Below, one piece after another: positions 9,570 through 36,773 of a stretch of DNA of 64,000 nucleotides. The notes below the pieces were generated by a model, which worked only from the letters and a program-made list of their open reading frames with translations, was not told where the DNA came from and ran no database searches. The stretch comes from Candidatus Buchananbacteria bacterium CG10_big_fil_rev_8_21_14_0_10_33_19 (lineage in GTDB: Bacteria > Patescibacteriota > Patescibacteriia > 2-01-FULL-39-33): NCBI GenBank assembly GCA_002773855.1, contig PEZY01000012.1, positions 297,613 to 361,612 of the forward strand, written 5' to 3'. Position 1 is the stretch's first letter. Each line of letters opens with the position of its first letter. A program made the translations under genes and the position numbers.

Positions 9570-10886
9570 ATGATACTATTTATATTATTTATAATTTTGG
9601 GAATTGCTTTTTCTTTGTGTTATATTTGGGGTAAAGAAAAATTTTCACCAGCTAATTTAATGTTAGCTGTTTGGTTAATATCTATTGGAGTAGCTCAATT
9701 ACGACTTAGTCCTCATGAAAATAAATGGACAGTTGATTTTTGGTTGGTTTTATTTTTATTTTTGGTATTGTTCTATTTATCTTTTTTGATTGTAAATAAT
9801 AAGATTGGTAAAAAAATTACCGATAATAAAAAAAATATTTTGATTGATAAAAAGATATTATTTTTTGTGGCTATAGGTTTAACCTCAGCCAGCTTGTTGA
9901 GTAATCTTTATATATTTTGGCAATTTAAAACCATGCCAATATTTTCATCTAGTCCGGATAGGATGAGATTTATTATTAACAAAAATATTTTTGGTTTATG
10001 GGAATATTTAGCCCTATTGCCTAGACTTTATATTCCGTTATTATTTTTTTATTTGTTATCAATTAAGAGTATATCTAGGAAATATAAATTATTTATTTGG
10101 CTAAATATTATTTTGGGTTTTCTATTATTATTTTTATACGCTTCTAGGTTGGTAATAATTTTGCCAATTTTGTTAACATACTTTGTCTATATTTATTTGA
10201 AAAAAAATAATATTACTTTTAAGAAAATAATTATTTCTTCAATATTGGTGTTACTAGTGGTTGGCTTTATATCTGTGGCTATTCCAGCTTTTCGTAATTA
10301 TATAACTTATAAAGATTATTATACTGACAGCCTAGATTATACGCCATTTACCTATTTGGTTAATTTATCCGGTATTGCTGTGCCGGCTGAATTACAATGG
10401 ATTATTCCATTATATATTATTCCTAGTTTTAATTTGCAGGCCATGCTACAAGCGACCACTTATTATAATACTAGTGTTAACAATTTTTATCAGGGTGCTT
10501 ATTATCTCACAGTTTTTAATCCACTTCTAAAAATATTACATTTGCCATTATCTAATGTGATAATACCCTGGGAGCCAATGTTTTTGTCTTGGTGGATAAC
10601 GGCGACATTTTTATTTTCGGCTTGGGCGGATTTTGGTTACTGGGGAATTATTTTTATAGCTATTTTATGGGGTATTATTTTAGCTGTAGCCTATCAATAT
10701 GCATCAAAAAAACCGACTTATTTGTCGATTATGTTAATGTCTTATTTTAGTTTTGTGGTGATAATGAGTATTTACACTGATTATTTGATGAGAGCCGAGT
10801 TTTATATAGATGTGTTTTTTATTTTTGTGACTGGCTATATTTTTTTGAAATTTAAAAATCAGACTACTCAAAAGATTGATCAATAA
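9570..10886 (+). CDS. polytopic membrane protein, possibly an O-antigen polymerase/ligase-like protein
   Basis: More than 10 predicted TM helices; sits inside the glycosyltransferase cluster. Confidence 0.4.
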   Translation: MILFILFIILGIAFSLCYIWGKEKFSPANLMLAVWLISIGVAQLRLSPHENKWTVDFWLVLFLFLVLFYLSFLIVNNKIGKKITDNKKNILIDKKILFFVAIGLTSASLLSNLYIFWQFKTMPIFSSSPDRMRFIINKNIFGLWEYLALLPRLYIPLLFFYLLSIKSISRKYKLFIWLNIILGFLLLFLYASRLVIILPILLTYFVYIYLKKNNITFKKIIISSILVLLVVGFISVAIPAFRNYITYKDYYTDSLDYTPFTYLVNLSGIAVPAELQWIIPLYIIPSFNLQAMLQATTYYNTSVNNFYQGAYYLTVFNPLLKILHLPLSNVIIPWEPMFLSWWITATFLFSAWADFGYWGIIFIAILWGIILAVAYQYASKKPTYLSIMLMSYFSFVVIMSIYTDYLMRAEFYIDVFFIFVTGYIFLKFKNQTTQKIDQ

Positions 10887-18202: not shown

Positions 18203-18430
18203 TTATTTTTCGATTGAACAGAGATTGGCGTCAAAGCCACAGATAGCACAGATACCAGTAATTACTGCTGGGCTATAATTTTCATTACTACATTGCGGAC
18301 ATCTTAGTAGTCCAATAGCACCGCCATCTTTACAGATAAAGCCAGAGCCTAGTAACTTATCACCCTCTTGAAATTTAATTTCAATATTATCAAAATCTTT
18401 TGGTGTTGGTAATTTTTTGATTTGGGTCAT
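18203..18430 (-). CDS. small Cys-rich protein, zinc-ribbon-like
   Basis: CPQC and CAIC pairs; convergent with gltX. Confidence 0.4.
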   Translation of the reverse strand: MTQIKKLPTPKDFDNIEIKFQEGDKLLGSGFICKDGGAIGLLRCPQCSNENYSPAVITGICAICGFDANLCSIEK

Positions 18431-20274: not shown

Positions 20275-20427
20275 ATGGAAAGTATAGTAAAATGTGCTCA
20301 ATGTGATATGCCTATAACTGATGAATCAAAATGTAAATGTGACTCTAATTTGTGTAAAGATTGTTGTGATTGTAAAAAATCAGAAGATTCAAAGTGTGCC
20401 TGTGGCCATGATTGCGGTTGTAAATAG
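20275..20427 (+). CDS. metallothionein-like small protein (50 aa, 13 Cys)
   Basis: MESIVKCAQCDMPITDESKCKCDSNLCKDCCDCKKSEDSKCACGHDCGCK; repeated CxC/KCACxxxC motifs; followed by an intrinsic terminator; under the ORF track's length cut-off. Confidence 0.45.
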   Translation: MESIVKCAQCDMPITDESKCKCDSNLCKDCCDCKKSEDSKCACGHDCGCK

Positions 20428-20824: not shown

Positions 20825-21817
20825 ATGAAAAAGTTATCACCTCAACATATTTTAAGAAAGTGTTCTAAGTGTCGCTGTCTTCGCACTAATACTGGTAATG
20901 AATTTTTTTGTAGTTTACACTATGATCAACCAGAAAAGGGAATCCATACTTTGTTAGACTTTAAAAAAAATCATCATGGAGTTAATATTGATGAACCTAA
21001 GTGTGCTGGACGCTCTAATGCAGTTGACCTAGAAACATTGGTTAATGAAGTAGCAGCTAGAGCCAGACATTTCGGTAGAAGTTTAATTGGTTTTTCAACT
21101 GGCTCTCTTTATAAATTTGAAGTGCCGTTAGTGGATAAATTAAAAGCTTTTCTTCGAGCTGGTTCAACGGTTTTGGAATTAAGTTTTGCCACCACAGAAG
21201 AATTACTAGCTTTTGATCCAACTGAAGCCGATTTAAGTAAGTTTAAAAAATATCATAAAATTACTGTTCATGCTCCTTGGAAGGGTATTAGGTATTTTGA
21301 TGGTACTGTTCAGGCCTATCAGGTGATTGAAAAAATCATAGAATTAGGTCAACTTTTTCATGTTAGCGGAGTAGTGTTTCATCCAGATATTGTAGATAAT
21401 TTTGATGCTTTGGATTTTGTGCCACTGCCAATTTTGATTGAAAATATGGATCGTAATAAGAAGTTTGGTATTTCGCCGGAAGAAATGGCTATGATCAAGC
21501 TTAATTATGGTTTTGATTTTGTTTTGGACTTGCAACATGCCTATGAGCATGATCCGTCAATGTTATTAGCTCAGGAGTTAATAGAGGCTATGGGTGATCG
21601 TATTGCCCATTTGCATGTTAGTGGTCAATCTAAAACTAGTCGTCATGCTCCAGTTTATCAAGCTAATAACAAGAATGAGATATGTAAACTACTTAGGACA
21701 TTACCTAACATACCAGTAATATTAGAGGGGGTTATTTCAGAAAATTTCTTTCCTAGTATTAAGATAGAAATTCACTATGTTACTGAAAATGGTGATCCAT
21801 TTAAAAAAAAATACTAA
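20825..21817 (+). CDS. xylose-isomerase-like TIM-barrel protein (AP endonuclease family 2 / sugar-phosphate isomerase fold) with an N-terminal Cys cluster
   Basis: HAPW, FHPD, IENM, DLQHAY and HLHVSG metal-ligand pattern; N-terminal CSKCRC..C..H; strong SD. Confidence 0.55.
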   Translation: MKKLSPQHILRKCSKCRCLRTNTGNEFFCSLHYDQPEKGIHTLLDFKKNHHGVNIDEPKCAGRSNAVDLETLVNEVAARARHFGRSLIGFSTGSLYKFEVPLVDKLKAFLRAGSTVLELSFATTEELLAFDPTEADLSKFKKYHKITVHAPWKGIRYFDGTVQAYQVIEKIIELGQLFHVSGVVFHPDIVDNFDALDFVPLPILIENMDRNKKFGISPEEMAMIKLNYGFDFVLDLQHAYEHDPSMLLAQELIEAMGDRIAHLHVSGQSKTSRHAPVYQANNKNEICKLLRTLPNIPVILEGVISENFFPSIKIEIHYVTENGDPFKKKY

Positions 21818-21839
21818 TCCGGCAATATGCTGGATTTTT

Positions 21840-22799
21840 TTATTGTCCACTGTGAAATTTTTTGTGAATATCTTTTAATTTTTTATTAGTAACATGCGTA
21901 TATATTTGAGTGGTGGCAATATTGCTGTGGCCTAGTAATTCTTGGACCGATCTTAGATCAGCGCCTTGATCTAATAAATCAGTGGCGTAGCTGTGTCTAA
22001 GGGTGTGAGGTGTAGCGTCTACTGGTAGACCAGCCATAACAGTATATTTTTTTACTAAATTTTCAATTGATCTAGACGATAGTCTGTGGTCATCATCGTT
22101 ATTATTGCGACTATAGTTGATAAACAGGGGAGTTAACATGTCATTTCTGGTCTTAAGGTATTTTGAAAGCCATTTTAGGGATCGATTGGAAAAATAGATA
22201 GTTCTAGTTTTGCCACCCTTACCATTAATAACTAATTCCTGGTCAGTGAACTTATTTGTAATCAGGTTATTGCGATTAAACTGCTTAACGTTAAGCGAAG
22301 TTAATTCTGAGACCCGGATGCCAGTAGAGAAGAGTACCTCTAGTATGGTTCTATCTCTTAAGCCATCAGGCTTAGATGTATTTGGCATATTTAACATTTT
22401 TTCAATTTGTTCAAAATTTAAAAATTTAATTGATTTATCTTTATCAGTTAATTTTGGTAATTTTATTTTGTCAGAGGGCAGTGAGATGATATCTTTGTCA
22501 GCTAAATAATTTAAGAGTATTCTAATGGCCCTTAAATAATAGCTTTGAGTAGTCTTTTTAATCCGTTTACCCTTATCATCCTGTTTACGTGATAAATAGA
22601 GTCGGTAGTCCCAAATATGGTCTGTAGTGAGCTCGTGGGGCTTGATATCAACTAAGTCATGATCCTTAAGCCAGTTTATAAACATTTTTAGAAAGTTATG
22701 ATAATTACGGGTTGATACTGGACTCAGGCCCTTTTCAACCTCACAATAGTCTAGGAAGTTAGGGATATGTTTAATTAGTGGAATATTAGATTTTTTCAT
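21840..22799 (-). CDS. tyrosine site-specific recombinase, XerC/XerD family
   Basis: Catalytic R (TGIRVSEL), HTLRHSYAT, and GHSNIATTQIYTHV (H..Y) motifs. Confidence 0.9.
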   Translation of the reverse strand: MKKSNIPLIKHIPNFLDYCEVEKGLSPVSTRNYHNFLKMFINWLKDHDLVDIKPHELTTDHIWDYRLYLSRKQDDKGKRIKKTTQSYYLRAIRILLNYLADKDIISLPSDKIKLPKLTDKDKSIKFLNFEQIEKMLNMPNTSKPDGLRDRTILEVLFSTGIRVSELTSLNVKQFNRNNLITNKFTDQELVINGKGGKTRTIYFSNRSLKWLSKYLKTRNDMLTPLFINYSRNNNDDDHRLSSRSIENLVKKYTVMAGLPVDATPHTLRHSYATDLLDQGADLRSVQELLGHSNIATTQIYTHVTNKKLKDIHKKFHSGQ

Positions 22800-22903
22800 A
22801 GTTTTTTGGTTCTTTACTTCTCTTATCCTCTGTTATACGAAGTTAAATATATTATAAAATAAAATTAGTAATCACTCAATAAAGTTATCCCCTGGCTCAT
22901 AAT

Positions 22904-22945
22904 GCATAACGCATAGCGTATAACATATAACGCATAACGCATAAC
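22904..22945. repeat. Six tandem 7-bp repeats (consensus GCATAAC) upstream of the recombinase gene, with related half-sites nearby
   Basis: GCATAAC GCATAGC GTATAAC ATATAAC GCATAAC GCATAAC, read directly; ACGCGTAAC at 22972-80; inverted GTTATGCAT at 23029-37. Confidence 0.8.
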
Positions 22946-23056
22946 TTATAATATGTAATACACAACATGTGACGCGTAACGGAAAATTTATTATTACTAA
23001 CTGCATAGGCTAGTGTTATGTGTTACTCGTTATGCATGGATGCTCTCCCCTATTTT

Positions 23057-23902
23057 CTACTTATAATATATTTTATCGCCGAATCTTAAGTCAATGTATT
23101 CCAATACCGAACGGTCTTTGACTTTATTATTTAAAACCATCTGCATATTTTCTATGGCCGTATCAAAGTTACTAGTAACATCAAAATGAGCTTGCCAGCC
23201 GAGCTTGGTAATAGCGGTTATTTCGTTCAATCCCCCGCTTTTATAATTATTTATCTCAATACCTAGAGATTTTAATTTGTCGTTTAATTGTAAAATAAAA
23301 TCAACAATAGTACTAGACACAGCTTCTGTCCCAATAGTTGTTTCCTTGTCAGTTAGCATTAGTGGAAATTCACTAATATAAATATTGCTTTCTTCTGGTC
23401 TAATTTCTCTAATAATTATGCCCTGCTTGTCAACAAAAAATAACTTGTCATTATTTTTAATTATTAGGTAATTAATCCTTTCTTTAATGTTAATAGTGAT
23501 TTTTTTCCAGCCACGTTTAATTGCTATTTCATCTAAGCCATATTTACCGCCAATAGCCTTAATTATATTTGATTTACTAATAAATAATATATTTTGTTGT
23601 GGTAGTATGAACCAGCGCCAATTATTAAGTTGTTCATCAACTATTTGTTCTAATTCTATTTTGTTTATTAGGTCAGCACCATTAACGTCAATGGTTTGAA
23701 TTTTAAATAAATCACTGTAAATTATAATGTATAACAAAAAAACACCTAAAAGTATTTTTAAATACAATTTAGTATTAAATCCTCCAGAATGCTCTTTTTT
23801 AACGGATCTAGTAAAATAAGGATTTGAGAAATGCTTTCTTTTGTAGTCTTTTTTGATCCTTATTTTTGATTGATAATTCTTATTAGAAAAATCTTTAATC
23901 AT
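23057..23902 (-). CDS. ftsQ: cell division protein FtsQ/DivIB
   Basis: N-terminal TM, POTRA-like domain, and position immediately downstream of ddl. Confidence 0.7.
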   Translation of the reverse strand: MIKDFSNKNYQSKIRIKKDYKRKHFSNPYFTRSVKKEHSGGFNTKLYLKILLGVFLLYIIIYSDLFKIQTIDVNGADLINKIELEQIVDEQLNNWRWFILPQQNILFISKSNIIKAIGGKYGLDEIAIKRGWKKITINIKERINYLIIKNNDKLFFVDKQGIIIREIRPEESNIYISEFPLMLTDKETTIGTEAVSSTIVDFILQLNDKLKSLGIEINNYKSGGLNEITAITKLGWQAHFDVTSNFDTAIENMQMVLNNKVKDRSVLEYIDLRFGDKIYYK

Positions 23903-33385: not shown

Positions 33386-33435
33386 AAAAAAAAATAATTT
33401 TATGTTATTAATTCTATTATAGCATAATTATTTGG

Positions 33436-33469
33436 ACAAATAAAAATCCCGTCGGTAAAGACGGGATTT
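33436..33469 (-). terminator. Rho-independent terminator closing the left end of the GC-rich island
   Basis: aaatcccgtc-ggtaaa-gacgggattt, a 10-bp perfect stem, with a minus-strand T-run. Confidence 0.65.
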
Positions 33470-33803
33470 AGAGAAGGGTGAACTGGAATGTTGTGAAACT
33501 GTATTTGAGAGAGAATCTCCAAACTAAAGTTGGAGAAATGCAATTTACAACATACCAGCATGAAATCCTTCCCTCAGTGAAAAATTATAGCACCCCTAAA
33601 AAATACAATCAATCTTTTTTTTAATTTTTCTGTGGATAAAAAAAATCTCTTCCATTGCGCCGTTAAGTTTCTAAAAATACTTAGACACTTAACGGGGAAA
33701 AAGAAGAGAGATTTTCTAGTCCTAAGACTTTAACTTCCCCGGTCAAATTAATAAGTTAATTATTAATTTGATTAGGGAGAGGAAGTATCAATGACGCCTC
33801 CTC

Positions 33804-34037
33804 TCAAATGGTTTCGACTGTGATCAGTGCCGCTTCGCTTTTTCGAATGGCAATGACACTATCATAAATTTTAAGGCGCATAGGGTCACCTAGTGGAGCA
33901 AAGCCTAAAACTTCAATCCCCGCTCCCTCAATGAAGCCCATTTCTAGTAGTCGTTGAAAGACAGCAAATACTGTTTCTTTTATTTCTACGACTATACAAA
34001 ATTGGCAGGCGTGTAACTTATCTAGAGTGGTGGTCAT
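33804..34037 (-). CDS. feoA: FeoA-family protein (orphan; no feoB present)
   Basis: RLLEMGF.EGAGIEVLGFAPLGDPMRLKI....IAIRKSEAALITVE matches the FeoA SH3-like consensus. Confidence 0.7.
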   Translation of the reverse strand: MTTTLDKLHACQFCIVVEIKETVFAVFQRLLEMGFIEGAGIEVLGFAPLGDPMRLKIYDSVIAIRKSEAALITVETI

Positions 34038-34105
34038 AATATAAAACCTCTCTTAGATGATGAGCGGGCTGACAGATTGGATCTGCAGCCCGCTAAATGT
34101 TGGGG

Positions 34106-34324
34106 TTAGACAGCTTCGGGACGAAGCTGTCTCATGAAGTCGAAGCAGTCAACTGCTCTGTCCTCAAGGACATCGGAGCGATGTACTGGACAACGAGAGC
34201 ATGGCGACGTTTCGTCTTCACAGATGAGTCCGCGTTGCAGAATTTCTTCTGCGGACAGCGTCTCCAATTCTGACATGGGATGGGCATGAGGACAATCCTC
34301 ACATTCGTTATGACACATGGCCAT
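34106..34324 (-). CDS. small Cys-rich protein (CxxxCxxC..CxxC), C-terminal DCFDF motif
   Basis: ORF in the GC-rich island; its 3' end is encoded by a perfect hairpin at 34109-34131. Confidence 0.35.
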   Translation of the reverse strand: MAMCHNECEDCPHAHPMSELETLSAEEILQRGLICEDETSPCSRCPVHRSDVLEDRAVDCFDFMRQLRPEAV

Positions 34325-34385
34325 AGCATTTCTCCTTATTCGGTTGCAATTGATCTAGTCCGAGAAATTCGGGCTAGTAAAAGAG

Positions 34386-34568
34386 CTACTGGGGATATTC
34401 CATTTCAGGGAAATGGAGGTCGAAACAGTCTGGACAATAGCCATGGCTAATGTCTCTCCTACCTTCGACGGACTGCTCTGTCCATGAGCCGTCAGTTTGA
34501 CGAACCTTTTTACATACGCAACATTGAACTACCATTGATGTACCTCCATAGTTGAATTTTCCCCACAA
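34386..34568 (-). CDS. small zinc-ribbon-like protein (CCVC...CPDC), C-terminal DCFDL motif
   Basis: ORF in the GC-rich island. Confidence 0.35.
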   Translation of the reverse strand: MWGKFNYGGTSMVVQCCVCKKVRQTDGSWTEQSVEGRRDISHGYCPDCFDLHFPEMEYPQ

Positions 34569-34648
34569 CGATACGAAGCAAGTTTGAACAAAATGGTCGG
34601 TCTCTTATAATATATATTTATTTGTACCGGTTTTGTCAAGTTTGCTTG

Positions 34649-34670
34649 TTAGTAGACCTACTAGTAAATA
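34649..34670. repeat. Inverted-repeat arm L (ttagtagacctactagtaaata)
   Basis: Partner arm at 34795-34819; about 17/20 of the aligned positions match the reverse complement. Confidence 0.5.
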
Positions 34671-34794
34671 TTTTTTGTTTATAAACTTTTATAATTTTGA
34701 GATAAATTTTTCAAATAATCTTTGCGGTTTAGAGGTTCTAAATTAAAAAGATTTTTGGAAATTTAGTCGAAATTTATAAGTTTTAACAAAAAGG

Positions 34795-34819
34795 TATTTA
34801 CTAGTGGGTCTACACCTAG
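34795..34819. repeat. Inverted-repeat arm R (tatttactagtgggtctacacctag)
   Basis: Reverse complement of arm L; the 120 bp between them is AT-rich. Confidence 0.5.
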
Positions 34820-35006
34820 CATGTCCCTCCTTCGTATCGGCGTGGAGAAAATTCTCCAATCGCCAGTTCATTAGAACAACTAATAGAGGATGACTGATGA
34901 AAAATAGATTTCATAAGGCCCTATTATGGTTGTGACCCGAAACATATAATTCGTAATTTGTTCCCTCCCCTATATGATTGTTCTAAAATAAATTTAATGT
35001 ACTCTT

Positions 35007-35120
35007 CAAAACTATCCCGTCAAATTGATTTCAATTCCCTCATAATTAACATTTTCTGGAATATTCTTTTTTAACAAGATAGTTTTGAGGAGAAATCTTT
35101 ATGGTTATTATGATTTCTCC
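35007..35120 (-). ncRNA. Structured repeat element, copy A (long-range helix plus terminal GC hairpin); strand tentative
   Basis: 5' arm caaaactatc pairs with 3' arm gatagttttg; hairpin ggagaaatc/gatttctcc. Confidence 0.4.
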
Positions 35121-35289
35121 AGATTTTGCTGGCGAGTATTATTTTCAAGTGGCATCCTCTACTGGTTGAAAAATAGTAGCCCTTTTCTCTAAATACGCAG
35201 ATCAGGCCACCAACTACTCGATAAGTGTGTAAAATTTTACCGTAACGAACTTCTAATAACTCTGATTGTGACATCTCACTATCCTCCAT
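35071..35289 (-). CDS. questionable small ORF overlapping copy A of the structured element
   Basis: From the ORF track; its C-terminus is encoded by the hairpin region. Confidence 0.15.
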   Translation of the reverse strand: MEDSEMSQSELLEVRYGKILHTYRVVGGLICVFREKGYYFSTSRGCHLKIILASKIWRNHNNHKDFSSKLSC

Positions 35290-35300
35290 GGTTTTTTACC

Positions 35301-35420
35301 AGAACTATCCAGTCAATCGATTTTATTCCCTCCTTTGTATTTTTTATAAATCAAGAAATGGAACCCTCATATTGACAAGATAGTTTTGGTGAGGAGCACG
35401 AGTTCAATGTCGTGCTCCTC
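35301..35420 (-). ncRNA. Structured repeat element, copy B
   Basis: Arms agaactatccagtcaat / attgacaagatagttttgg; hairpin gaggagcacga/tcgtgctcctc. Confidence 0.4.
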
Positions 35421-35427
35421 TGTATCT

Positions 35428-35631
35428 TTACCTCCACGGTTGGTGGTAAAGACATGTTCCGTGGTGTTCGCGCATCATAAACACCACGGAAAGGTCCATT
35501 GACAATTTTCTGGCTACCTTAACAGCCCCAACAAAACTGTCAAATACATAGATAAAGTCTATGCAATCGCAGGTGTAACCAAATACTGTATACATAAATT
35601 TCTCCTCTCGTTGTTGAAATGTACTACCCAA
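35428..35631 (-). CDS. small Cys-containing ORF (likely start MYTVFGYTCDCIDF...), preceded by copy C of the structured element and a GAGGAG Shine-Dalgarno
   Basis: SD gagaggag 8 nt upstream of the internal Met; shares the GYxCDCxDF motif with ORF 34386-34568. Confidence 0.3.
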   Translation of the reverse strand: MGSTFQQREEKFMYTVFGYTCDCIDFIYVFDSFVGAVKVARKLSMDLSVVFMMREHHGTCLYHQPWR

Positions 35632-35733
35632 AACTATCTAGCCAATCCCGTAAATCCTCTAAATTGATTTAAGTAGAATCAGCAGATTAGCGAGATGGTT
35701 TTGGGAGGGGCTGGACATCACAGGTCCAGCCCC
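35629..35733 (-). ncRNA. Structured repeat element, copy C
   Basis: 21-nt arms cccaaaactatctagccaatc / gattagcgagatggttttggg; hairpin ggggctggac/gtccagcccc. Confidence 0.4.
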
Positions 35734-36736
35734 AGAAAGGTTGAGTGCGCATGGACAACACACCCAAGAATGAAGATTGTCGGATCAAAGATCCTTATCA
35801 GGGCGACGCATCTAGATAACTAGCTGCCGCCCTTATAAGGAGCTTCGAATCTTTTTAACAAGAGATTAAAAGATTCACTCCCTTAAAACAAAAGAACCCT
35901 GGTTGGAGAGAGAGGGTTCCTTTGCGGTGACCACTATAATAAATATACTGGTGGTTTTTTCTCTCTCCTTATTGTGCTAGCATTATATCATATAACAGTA
36001 ATCTTGTCAAGTATATTGCTGGTTTTTTGCTAAAAATTAGCTAAAATTAGCTAATATTATAAACTTGTCAATATGATAAAATTGTGATGTAATATAGTTT
36101 TATGAAATTTAGTTACTTAGTATTTCTTATATTCGTTATTCAATGAGTTATATATCTTATCTCTTTCTATCTGTTACTTTTGTACCGCCAAAAGTAACCA
36201 AAAGCTCGCAAACGTAAAAAATCATGGCAATTTTATATCAGCTCGCTAGAGCCAATTAAACAAAACAGCGACCTAATAATTGTCTCTAACGCTCGCCTTG
36301 ATATAAAATTGACACAATATTTTTTAATGTTTGCATTTTTTATAATAAATATATAAATAAATTCGAGCATATGAAAAATTAAGTAGAAAAACAATAATAA
36401 ATTAAGCGTTTGTGAGTTGTCTACGAACAAATTTTTCGCATGTCTGAGCCATTTTCGACCTATCTAAATAAATAGAAAATGGTGAGTTCGGAAAATAGCG
36501 AAGATTTATTATAGTTTTTCCTTAATTTTATCATCGCTCGTAGTTTTTGTGTTACTTTTTGCTATCAAAAAGTGACGAGAAAAGTTATTAAAAAATGAGA
36601 TTGCTTCTTACCTCGCAATGACGTTTGTAGATGGAGTGTAAAGTAATAGAAATAAAGAAAATAATCTCTCTACCTCCCCCACCCGTATAGTTGCGGTCGA
36701 TATGACATGATAAAATAAAATAAAATTATAGATAAA

Positions 36737-36765
36737 AAAGACTAGTCATATGACTAGTCTTTTAA
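36737..36765. terminator. Perfect palindromic hairpin; bidirectional terminator downstream of the helicase-nuclease gene
   Basis: aaaagactagtcatatgactagtctttt. Confidence 0.65.
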
Positions 36766-36773
36766 AAGCATAA

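Follow-up and report, generated by a model that had tools for sequence, protein, structure and literature searches.

Introduction

The archaeal recombinase XerA is a single recombinase that acts on a 28-bp dif site with rather symmetrical arms. Among bacteria, XerS and difSL constitute one module at the replication terminus, with the site beside the recombinase gene (PMC5357621, PMC2731167), and in most species of Helicobacter and Campylobacter a lone xer gene is linked to its site at the terminus in the XerH/difH system (PMC2731167, PMC3325230). The XerL/dif system of the Legionellales is lineage-specific, relies on a single Xer, and was recognized by a palindromic, AT-rich terminus site that is mimicked by a mobile element (bioRxiv 10.1101/2021.09.12.459815). 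Here we describe a 64-kb stretch of contig PEZY01000012.1 from a Candidatus Buchananbacteria genome (the whole stretch is hereafter called the window), which belongs to the Patescibacteria, or candidate phyla radiation (CPR). It carries a Xer-like tyrosine recombinase gene, xer, next to a 28-bp palindromic site, and the two together probably represent a chromosome-dimer-resolution module at the terminus.

The candidate phyla are already represented among described recombinases by the "Cand" subgroup of Xer-related simple tyrosine recombinases, for which no dif was given (Smyshlyaev et al. 2021, PMC8138268). In the literature that we searched, largely outside subscription journals, we found no dif site reported for CPR/Patescibacteria, and only this recombinase group was noted (PMC8138268). 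Gene-linked Xer/dif is a known kind of arrangement that is apparently undescribed for CPR bacteria. A first-pass annotation of the window had recognized the recombinase gene and had proposed that six tandem heptamers and a 25-mer upstream of it belong to a dif module. Comparison with related loci leads to a different site in the same gap.

Results

A conserved 28-bp site upstream of xer

The gene xer (21840..22799, minus strand) encodes a Xer-like tyrosine recombinase of 319 amino acids with core-binding and catalytic domains only. Upstream of it, 16 bp from the ATG (22799), lies an intergenic 28-bp imperfect palindrome, ACTTCGTATAA-CAGAGG-ATAAGAGAAGT (22816..22843, minus strand), which we call dif. 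Its layout is 11-6-11, with the left arm at 22833-22843, the spacer at 22827-22832 and the right arm at 22816-22826. Eighty loci encoding relatives of the recombinase, one genome per species, were compared and 79 of them were scored; a position weight matrix was refined on related loci and then applied to the window and to loci of up to 20 kb. Most of the related loci have an upstream 28-bp imperfect palindrome of the type ACTTCGCATAA-TGTAGA-TTAAGCGAAGT and no heptamers.

With this matrix, the site at 22816-22843 scores 25.7 bits, the next best match in the window 6.8 bits and the fifth 2.9 bits. The best match reaches at least 15 bits in 73 of the 79 related loci; the matrix maximum in shuffled loci averages 4.4 bits, with a highest value of 15.3. 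All 73 sites are situated no more than 1.5 kb upstream of xer, 64 of them within 300 bp and 40 within 50 bp, where random placement would put about 2.4% of sites within 300 bp. The sites occur across loci labelled Falkow-, Buchanan-, Magasanik-, Kuenen-, Nealson-, Staskawicz- and Kaiserbacteria and Paceibacter. Compared with the loci of two close relatives whose Xer proteins are 93% (L083) and 90% (L084) identical, the dif of the window has 27 of 28 bases the same, with the distal spacer of the gap unrelated or deleted.

The consensus of 74 sites reads A(C/T)(G/T)TCG(C/T)A(T/C)AA-T(A/G)TA(G)(G/A)-T(T/A)AA(G)CGA(C/A)(G)T. Conservation falls on T4, C5, G6, A8, A10 and A11 of the left arm and on T18, A20, A21, C23, G24 and A25 of the right arm, on either side of the 6-bp spacer, and A8, A10, A11, T18, A20 and A21 are each conserved in at least 95% of sites. 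The 28-mer of the window is present as a single copy in the 64 kb at up to three mismatches, and the sites are mostly unique in the 20-kb related loci. No extra dif half-sites were found near the dif of the window.

Several related loci depart from this simple picture. Extra inverted copies of the right arm, 31-81 bp downstream of dif and before xer, are seen at L007, L017, L020, L025/L026, L029, L033 and L047; they are able to pair with the right arm as a hairpin, as in TAGATTAAGCGACC-TGT-GGTCGCTTAATCTA of L007, and there are nine cases against about 0.5 by chance (our estimate). At L063 (9732-9990), dif and about 85 bp of its downstream flank are duplicated in tandem; the second copy combines a good left arm with a degenerate right one, and the duplication looks like the trace of a mini-element or of Xer recombination that was unequal or illegitimate. 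The complete Nealsonbacteria genome CP179889.1 (L036) has a second strong dif-like site at 2361-2388, inverted and scoring 25.8 bits, 7.5 kb from the xer-linked dif. The dif of L074 (9395-9422) is palindromic save for two central bases (ACTTCGCATAATGTATATTATGCGAAGT) and lacks the A8/A21 asymmetry. In the window, the left arm with its flank (22831-22846, TAACTTCGTATA) agrees at 12 of 13 bases with the loxP arm, ATAACTTCGTATA.

A terminus-like point at the site

By convention, cumulative GC skew is minimal at the replication origin and maximal at the terminus, and genes run with replication. A skew check had been proposed with the first-pass annotation, and it places a terminus-like point at this locus over the 64 kb: the cumulative skew of the window peaks at 22809, 7 bp from dif, where the skew switches from plus to minus (about +0.2 to the left of the locus, negative to the right). 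The genes converge at the same place, lying on the plus strand up to 21817 and on the minus strand from 21840. Where a related locus extends for at least 5 kb on both sides, the skew likewise changes from plus to minus at the site in 35 of 44 cases, and the cumulative maximum falls no more than 1 kb from the site in 25 of the 44.

The skew at third codon positions (GC3 skew) of the xer coding strand is negative in 80% of 79 loci (-0.30 for the xer of the window), with a mean of -0.143 versus -0.003 for neighbouring long open reading frames (ORFs). This indicates that the switch lies upstream of xer, at dif, and not at the convergent gene boundary downstream. The first-pass annotation had named a skew extremum elsewhere with a better dif candidate there, together with the absence of the heptamers from orthologous loci, as findings that would speak against its own proposal. 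The extremum is here, but the better dif candidate is about 90 bp away from the one proposed and the heptamers are absent from the orthologues.

Symmetry and covariation of the arms

The two arms of dif are near mirror images, TCGCA(T/C)AA in the left arm corresponding to TCGCTT(A/T)A in the complement of the right, and their outer positions vary jointly by lineage (ACTTCG...CGAAGT, ACGTCG...CGACGT, ATGTCG...CGACAT). Complementary bases occupy positions 3 and 26 in 86% of 77 distinct sites, compared with 51% after shuffling, and none of 1000 shuffles reached 86%. Positions 2/27 and 1/28 likewise covary. Positions 8 and 21, by contrast with these pairs, are never complementary and form a conserved asymmetry beside the spacer.

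Because the arms are nearly symmetrical and covary, we infer that a single recombinase species binds both. The pattern fits one protein that reads both arms, and the asymmetry at positions 8 and 21 could order strand exchange. It may also point to a single recombinase in the genome. No second Xer homologue was found in the 64-kb window by tblastn, and among the related loci a nearby Xer paralogue was met only in L075, 30% identical and about 0.7 kb downstream of xer. In a relative whose Xer is 83% identical (L086, 1780-3047), two additional same-strand ORFs of 162 and 260 amino acids follow xer; the longer gives a weak match to Phage_int_SAM_1 and a faint one to Phage_integrase, and may be a degenerate second recombinase.

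The gap between the FtsQ-like gene and xer

Towards xer, the gap of 257 bp comprises the ftsQ stop (23057), a species-specific spacer of about 150 bp, a conserved box, a promoter-like site, dif and the xer ATG. The promoter-like site (22851..22879, minus strand) consists of a -35 element TTGAGT (22879-22874), a 17-bp spacer and a -10 element TATAAT (22856-22851), with 10 of 12 consensus matches in a consensus scan. Its hexamers are kept in L083, L086, L088 and L001, and the -10 element is kept in L084. Transcription would start about 7 nt past the -10 element, at or just inside the left arm of dif.

The box CAGGGGATAAC (22884..22894, minus strand) lies directly upstream of the -35 element. It is kept in the window, in L001 and in L083-L088. 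In L001 a perfect palindrome includes it, and in L005 a hairpin does. The box also repeats, at 90% and in direct orientation, the dif spacer with the start of the right arm, CAGAGGATAA. The distant loci L015 and L053 have a DnaA-box-like TGTGGATAA at the box position, and L057/L058 have a related TGTGGATAT.

Given this architecture, the 28-bp palindrome might be only an operator of xer or a hairpin in its 5' untranslated region, with the recombination site elsewhere. It lies 5-150 bp upstream of xer in most loci, straight after the promoter-like -10 element, and the covariation of the outer arms is equally compatible with a hairpin stem. However, the would-be loop is the most conserved part and positions 8 and 21 are never complementary, as an 11-6-11 recombinase site predicts. 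The site also persists, still intergenic, at eight loci where another ORF, usually on the opposite strand, stands between it and xer, and at L045, where it is 655 bp from xer with no ORF of at least 70 amino acids called between them; its retention there, also between convergent genes, argues against a pure operator or leader role. In 16 of 73 loci it points the other way relative to xer. It lies at the skew switch, and near-identical copies occur on phage contigs without xer, as described below. Taken together, these observations make an operator or hairpin improbable as the whole explanation of the palindrome, and a recombination site the better account of it.

The recombinase and its neighbourhood

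The identification of the gene product as a Xer-like tyrosine recombinase, made in the first-pass annotation, is borne out by Pfam, by the XerD and XerC scores and by the catalytic residues. The product matches Pfam Phage_integrase at 8.6e-40 and has one or more N-terminal SAM-like domains. XerD and XerC are its best NCBIfam matches, but no equivalog cut-off is reached: the scores are 231.9 bits for XerD (TIGR02225, cut-off 329.6), 222.6 for XerC (TIGR02224, cut-off 335.15), 190.8 for XerA (NF040815, cut-off 220) and 128.5 for XerS (NF003462, cut-off 267). The nearest solved structure is E. coli XerD (1a0p, 5.1e-38), followed by XerA (4a8e, 1.7e-36); XerH (5jjv) matches at only 6.2e-13. In the alignment to E. 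coli XerD, the catalytic residues R162, K194/197, H265, R268, H291 and Y300 are retained, and the set R-K-H-R-H-Y is invariant across 18 Xer orthologues. Such orthologues are abundant in the Patescibacteria, with 70-93% identity in many CPR lineages, and a protein identical to the xer product carries the database label Candidatus Falkowbacteria.

On the far side of the gap lies an FtsQ/DivIB-like gene (23057..23902, minus strand; Pfam FtsQ_DivIB_C 0.0044, a weak match below the cut-off), the final gene of a ddl-ftsQ block that ends upstream of dif. The order ddl-ftsQ-dif-xer is also found in L081, L082, L085 and L088, and in L083 and L084 a corresponding gene of 281 amino acids precedes dif-xer. 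The genes checked on either side of the locus are housekeeping genes (ddl, ftsQ-like, serS, lysS, gltX, pheST). Downstream of xer, a terminator scan gave a terminator-like hairpin (21816..21836, plus strand) with a 9-pair stem followed by a T-run, which sits between the ends of the convergent plus-strand gene (21817) and of xer (21840).

These surroundings bear on a further possibility, raised in the first-pass annotation, that an integrated mobile element supplied the recombinase as its integrase, with the upstream repeats as an attachment site that has arm-type sites. The protein does belong to the Pfam phage-integrase family, and the repeats do lie upstream of its gene. Yet a Pfam search found no arm-binding N-terminal domain, and a search of the 64 kb for attL/attR gave no second copy of the 25-mer, of the 28-mer or of a degenerate core. 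No tRNA gene is adjacent, the two in the window both being more than 30 kb from xer. The checked flanking genes are of the housekeeping kind, xer is conserved at 70-93% across CPR lineages, the same ftsQ-xer context recurs in close relatives, and the insert is without phage or plasmid similarity. We consider an integrase of this kind extremely improbable.

Copies of dif on candidate phage contigs

Integrative mobile elements exploiting Xer (IMEX) use the Xer of the host instead of an integrase of their own. A scan of 2.9 million viral contigs with consensus patterns of dif returned two hits. The first, L234 (IMGVR_UViG_3300033153_002784), has a full site, ACTTCGCATAATATAGGTTAAGCGAAGT, at 10844-10871 in a 1-kb gap between structural and replication modules; its genes include a large terminase, a major head protein, an adaptor and a primase, and no integrase domain and no xer were found in the 13.9 of 16.0 kb examined. 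The second, L235 (IMGVR_UViG_3300050014_000157), has a full site at 1595-1622 and genes for an exonuclease, an RNA ligase and an HNH nuclease, with no integrase or xer in the inspected part. Its site shares 27 of 28 bases with the dif on the L048 chromosome, and 31 of 32 when flanking bases are included.

By our rough estimate, 0.1-0.4 chance matches to the core patterns would be expected per scan, and chance is unlikely because the identity extends into the outer arms and flanks. No phage copy of the window's own dif variant was found. We regard both contigs as candidate phages that may use the host Xer. Host-specific mimicry of the site is typical of Xer-exploiting elements, for example LME-1 of Legionella (bioRxiv 10.1101/2021.09.12.459815).

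The heptamer array

All of the repeats that the first-pass annotation had described can be read in the DNA as it gave them, within about 260 bp upstream of the gene. They comprise an array of six heptamers of the G(C/T)ATAAC type (22904..22945, plus strand), a lone heptamer-like copy, ACGCGTAAC (22972..22980, plus strand), in the species-specific spacer, an inverted GTTATGCAT (23029-23037), and the 25-mer ACGCATAA-CTTATA-ATATGTAATAC (22937..22961, plus strand), which had been likened to dif. Their closeness to xer, on which that proposal leaned, holds in that they share the gap with it; the array nevertheless begins 105 bp from the ATG, and the promoter-like site and the 28-bp palindrome lie between. 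Similarly, a dif site does adjoin the gene, as had been suggested by analogy with XerS and XerH, but it is the one at 22816-22843, about 90 bp off.

The array units are GCATAAC, GCATAGC, GTATAAC, ATATAAC, GCATAAC and GCATAAC, in four variants, and Tandem Repeats Finder reports 22898-22945 with period 7, 6.9 copies and a score of 61. The two-unit pattern GCATAACGCATAAC, with up to two mismatches, has six matches in the 64 kb, all in the gap, versus 0.30 expected, a count reached in none of 100 shuffles. An inverted partner (23014..23037, plus strand) consists of about three degenerate heptamers in the opposite orientation and includes GTTATGCAT; 22902-22925 and 23014-23037 form an inverted repeat of 24 nt that is 79% complementary, with the two parts 88 nt apart.

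Conservation separates these repeats from dif. Three assemblies of the source species (L081, L082, L085) carry identical copies of the array, of the 25-mer and of the flanking motifs. In the orthologous loci of L083 (93%), L084 (90%), L086/87 (83%) and L088 (79% Xer identity), the array is absent while the promoter and dif are kept, and Tandem Repeats Finder, run on 600 bp to each side of dif, detected no such array in any of the 80 more distant loci. What stands between ftsQ and the box is, in L083 and L086/87, an unrelated AT-rich spacer of similar length; the two are mutually homologous, so that this spacer is probably ancestral. L088 has a different unrelated sequence in this position, and L084, whose whole gap is merely 96 bp, has no such spacer. 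The lone ACGCGTAAC lies in the stretch that is replaced in the orthologous loci.

The proposal that the array and the 25-mer are dif, or an accessory region to which Xer binds, like the accessory sequences at cer and psi, can draw on real likenesses. Every heptamer is similar to the inner 7 bp of the left arm in this clade, (T)CGCATAA; the 25-mer agrees with E. coli dif at 18 of 28 positions (a hand alignment to the sequence quoted in the first-pass annotation); an exact 9-mer is common to the array and the true dif, in inverted orientation; and only about 60-130 bp separate the array from dif. However, the 25-mer is present once in the window and lies outside its top five matrix hits. Its left half alone is Xer-arm-like: the right half is without the conserved TWAAnCGA, and the invariant T at arm position 4 is missing as well. 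The orthologues at 93, 90, 83 and 79% and all 80 more distant loci lack the array, and the 25-mer is absent from the orthologues. G(C/T)ATAAC arrays with three units or more are present in at least 120 contigs from metagenomes and in 9 from viruses, with GC contents of 0.25-0.71; on these contigs, at least 129 in all, neither a xer homologue nor a dif scoring 15 bits or more lies nearby. Two permuted control heptamers gave 7 and 9 viral hits versus 9 for the real one. The chance that the array or the 25-mer is the site, or part of it, is thus very slight, and the claim that the heptamers belong to the dif module largely fails on the orthologous loci.

A less demanding idea is that the six direct and about three inverted heptamers are a species-specific protein-binding array, as Xer decoys or accessory half-sites, or as iteron-like regulator sites that tune xer or the end of the ftsQ operon. 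For all its imperfection (four unit variants), the array does not differ among the three assemblies of the species, so it is not visibly unstable. It has an inverted partner, its units resemble the core of a Xer half-site, and it lies just upstream of the promoter-like site of xer. Weighing on the other side, it is not conserved beyond the species, the heptamer class is generic in metagenomes, the similarity to dif amounts to one 9-mer that random AT-rich sequence would yield with a chance of about 10% (our rough estimate), and no candidate binding protein is encoded nearby. We therefore think it unlikely that the array binds Xer or another protein in its source species.

The conspicuous heptamers are an ordinary tandem repeat that was mistaken for the site. 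Most likely, the array, its inverted partner and the 25-mer represent a slipped-strand tandem repeat in a fast-turnover spacer confined to the species, with no conserved role, and the likeness of the heptamer to the inner half of a Xer arm (CGCATAA/CGTATAA) is probably a coincidence. Other candidate explanations for the stretch were also tried and set aside. Folding of 22890-23056 is no better than that of shuffled sequences (z = -0.03 on the minus strand and -1.6 on the plus strand), and Rfam matches in the window are limited to the two tRNAs; a structured RNA is rejected. A putative miniature mobile element at 22902-23037 (136 bp, with 24-nt imperfect inverted ends) has no other copy in the window and no match in phage or plasmid collections, and its central exact 22-mer is absent from the metagenome collection. 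Heptamer arrays are not a general companion of dif either, since none is found near dif in the related loci and none of the 129 arrays accompanies xer or dif.

In unrelated metagenome contigs (L089-L217), arrays of (GCATAAC)n/(GTATAAC)n reach about 36 units, for example in L128, L143, L150, L165, L168 and L183, and several have a close inverted copy. In L101 the array lies directly beside telomere-like CCCTAAA repeats, a hint of a eukaryotic origin.

Other features of the window

A 3.4-kb region at 33386-36773 has no ORF longer than 77 amino acids, no Rfam match and a GC content above its surroundings. It contains several small ORFs with ribosome-binding sites, which encode Cys-rich peptides and a 77-amino-acid protein that appears FeoA-like by eye, and it has repeated CAAAACTATC/GATAGTTTTG motifs. 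Nearer the terminus are two small Cys-rich ORFs of 50 and 75 amino acids (20275-20427 and 18203-18430), of which the shorter, MESIVKCAQCD...CGHDCGCK, is metallothionein-like by eye.

Discussion

The position and conservation of the 28-bp site, the skew switch that coincides with it and the recombinase gene beside it lead us to consider it probable that xer and dif (22816-22843), at the terminus, constitute the chromosome-dimer-resolution module of a Patescibacteria/CPR genome. Once the chromosome has been replicated, the two sister dif copies would each be bound by Xer at both arms, and a single added crossover would turn a dimer into monomers. FtsK at the septum is the probable trigger, by analogy with other Xer systems. 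Since dif lies just downstream of the promoter-like site, Xer on dif would also cover the start of its own transcript and could in this way restrain its own expression.

Some points weigh against this reading or restrict its reach. The evidence is comparative throughout. The loci scored with the matrix are also those used to train it, so that the position of the best hit relative to xer is the only independent test. Skew was taken over local stretches, the 64-kb window and 20-kb loci, and the loci are related by descent, which means that the shuffle statistics for skew and arm covariation overstate independence. A Xer paralogue may exist outside the window, as 64 kb were searched and L075 does have one nearby. 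FtsK is absent among the ten large window ORFs that were scanned, the rest of the window not having been searched for it. Promoter-type matches in the region are no commoner than chance, so that conservation is the sole support for the promoter-like site. L234 and L235 were inspected in part and are a lead, not a demonstration. Finally, the exact 9-mer of the array, CGTATAACA, is the reverse complement of the junction between the left arm and the spacer of dif; it is within reach of chance, but it may point to a weak interaction between Xer and the heptamers.

A broader proposal, which we put forward tentatively and with rather less than even confidence, concerns a large part of the Patescibacteria, at least the sampled ABY1-type and Paceibacteria-type lineages. 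In these bacteria, a single XerC/D-like Xer would resolve chromosome dimers at a gene-coupled, near-palindromic 28-bp dif at the terminus and repress its own synthesis through the overlap of dif with the transcription start, and tailed phages with host-specific dif mimics would, like IMEX, use the host Xer in place of an integrase.

A clade-wide 28-bp marker beside a recognizable gene makes it possible to locate the terminus in thousands of fragmentary CPR genomes, which can aid assembly checking, circularization and estimates of replication rate. The 28-mer is also a cloning-ready substrate with which single-recombinase use can be tested in very small cells. In addition, dif mimicry offers a handle for linking phages to CPR hosts.

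Among the known systems, the XerC/XerD-dif system of E. coli and B. subtilis shares with this locus the 11-6-11 layout, the terminus location and a protein that is nearest to XerD and XerC, and the left arm here has the inner CGCATAA of the E. coli XerC arm. It differs in that the equivalog scores of XerC and XerD are not reached and one homologue is found in the 64 kb, and the near-identical, covarying arms suggest one protein rather than two paralogues. The classical arrangement is, moreover, one of two recombinase genes scattered on the chromosome (PMC2731167), whereas here the gene is beside the site. XerA differs in being archaeal, while the present protein is bacterial and scores below the XerA cut-off (190.8 against 220 for NF040815). 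The taxonomy and domain make-up of the xer product fit the "Cand" subgroup, to which it may belong. XerL, a divergent recombinase, has not been described as having its gene linked to the chromosomal dif; the features by which XerL/dif was recognized are nonetheless found here too, phage-borne mimics included.

The closest parallels in arrangement are XerS/difSL and XerH/difH. The protein itself is not XerS, which has 356 amino acids compared with 319 here and whose family model gives 128.5 against a cut-off of 267 (NF003462), and difSL is 31 bp long with an 11-bp central region (PMC5357621), compared with 28 bp and a 6-bp spacer at this locus. Nor is it of the XerH type, given the weak similarity (6e-13 for 5jjv versus 5e-38 for XerD) and the different arm sequences. 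In XerS/difSL, however, the gene adjoins the site as it does here, and the single recombinase that has been shown for XerS is the one we infer for this locus; in XerH/difH, the gene is linked to the site at the terminus, again as here. Because one gene is linked to its site at the terminus, the module of this CPR genome would be expected to work in the manner of XerS/difSL and XerH/difH.

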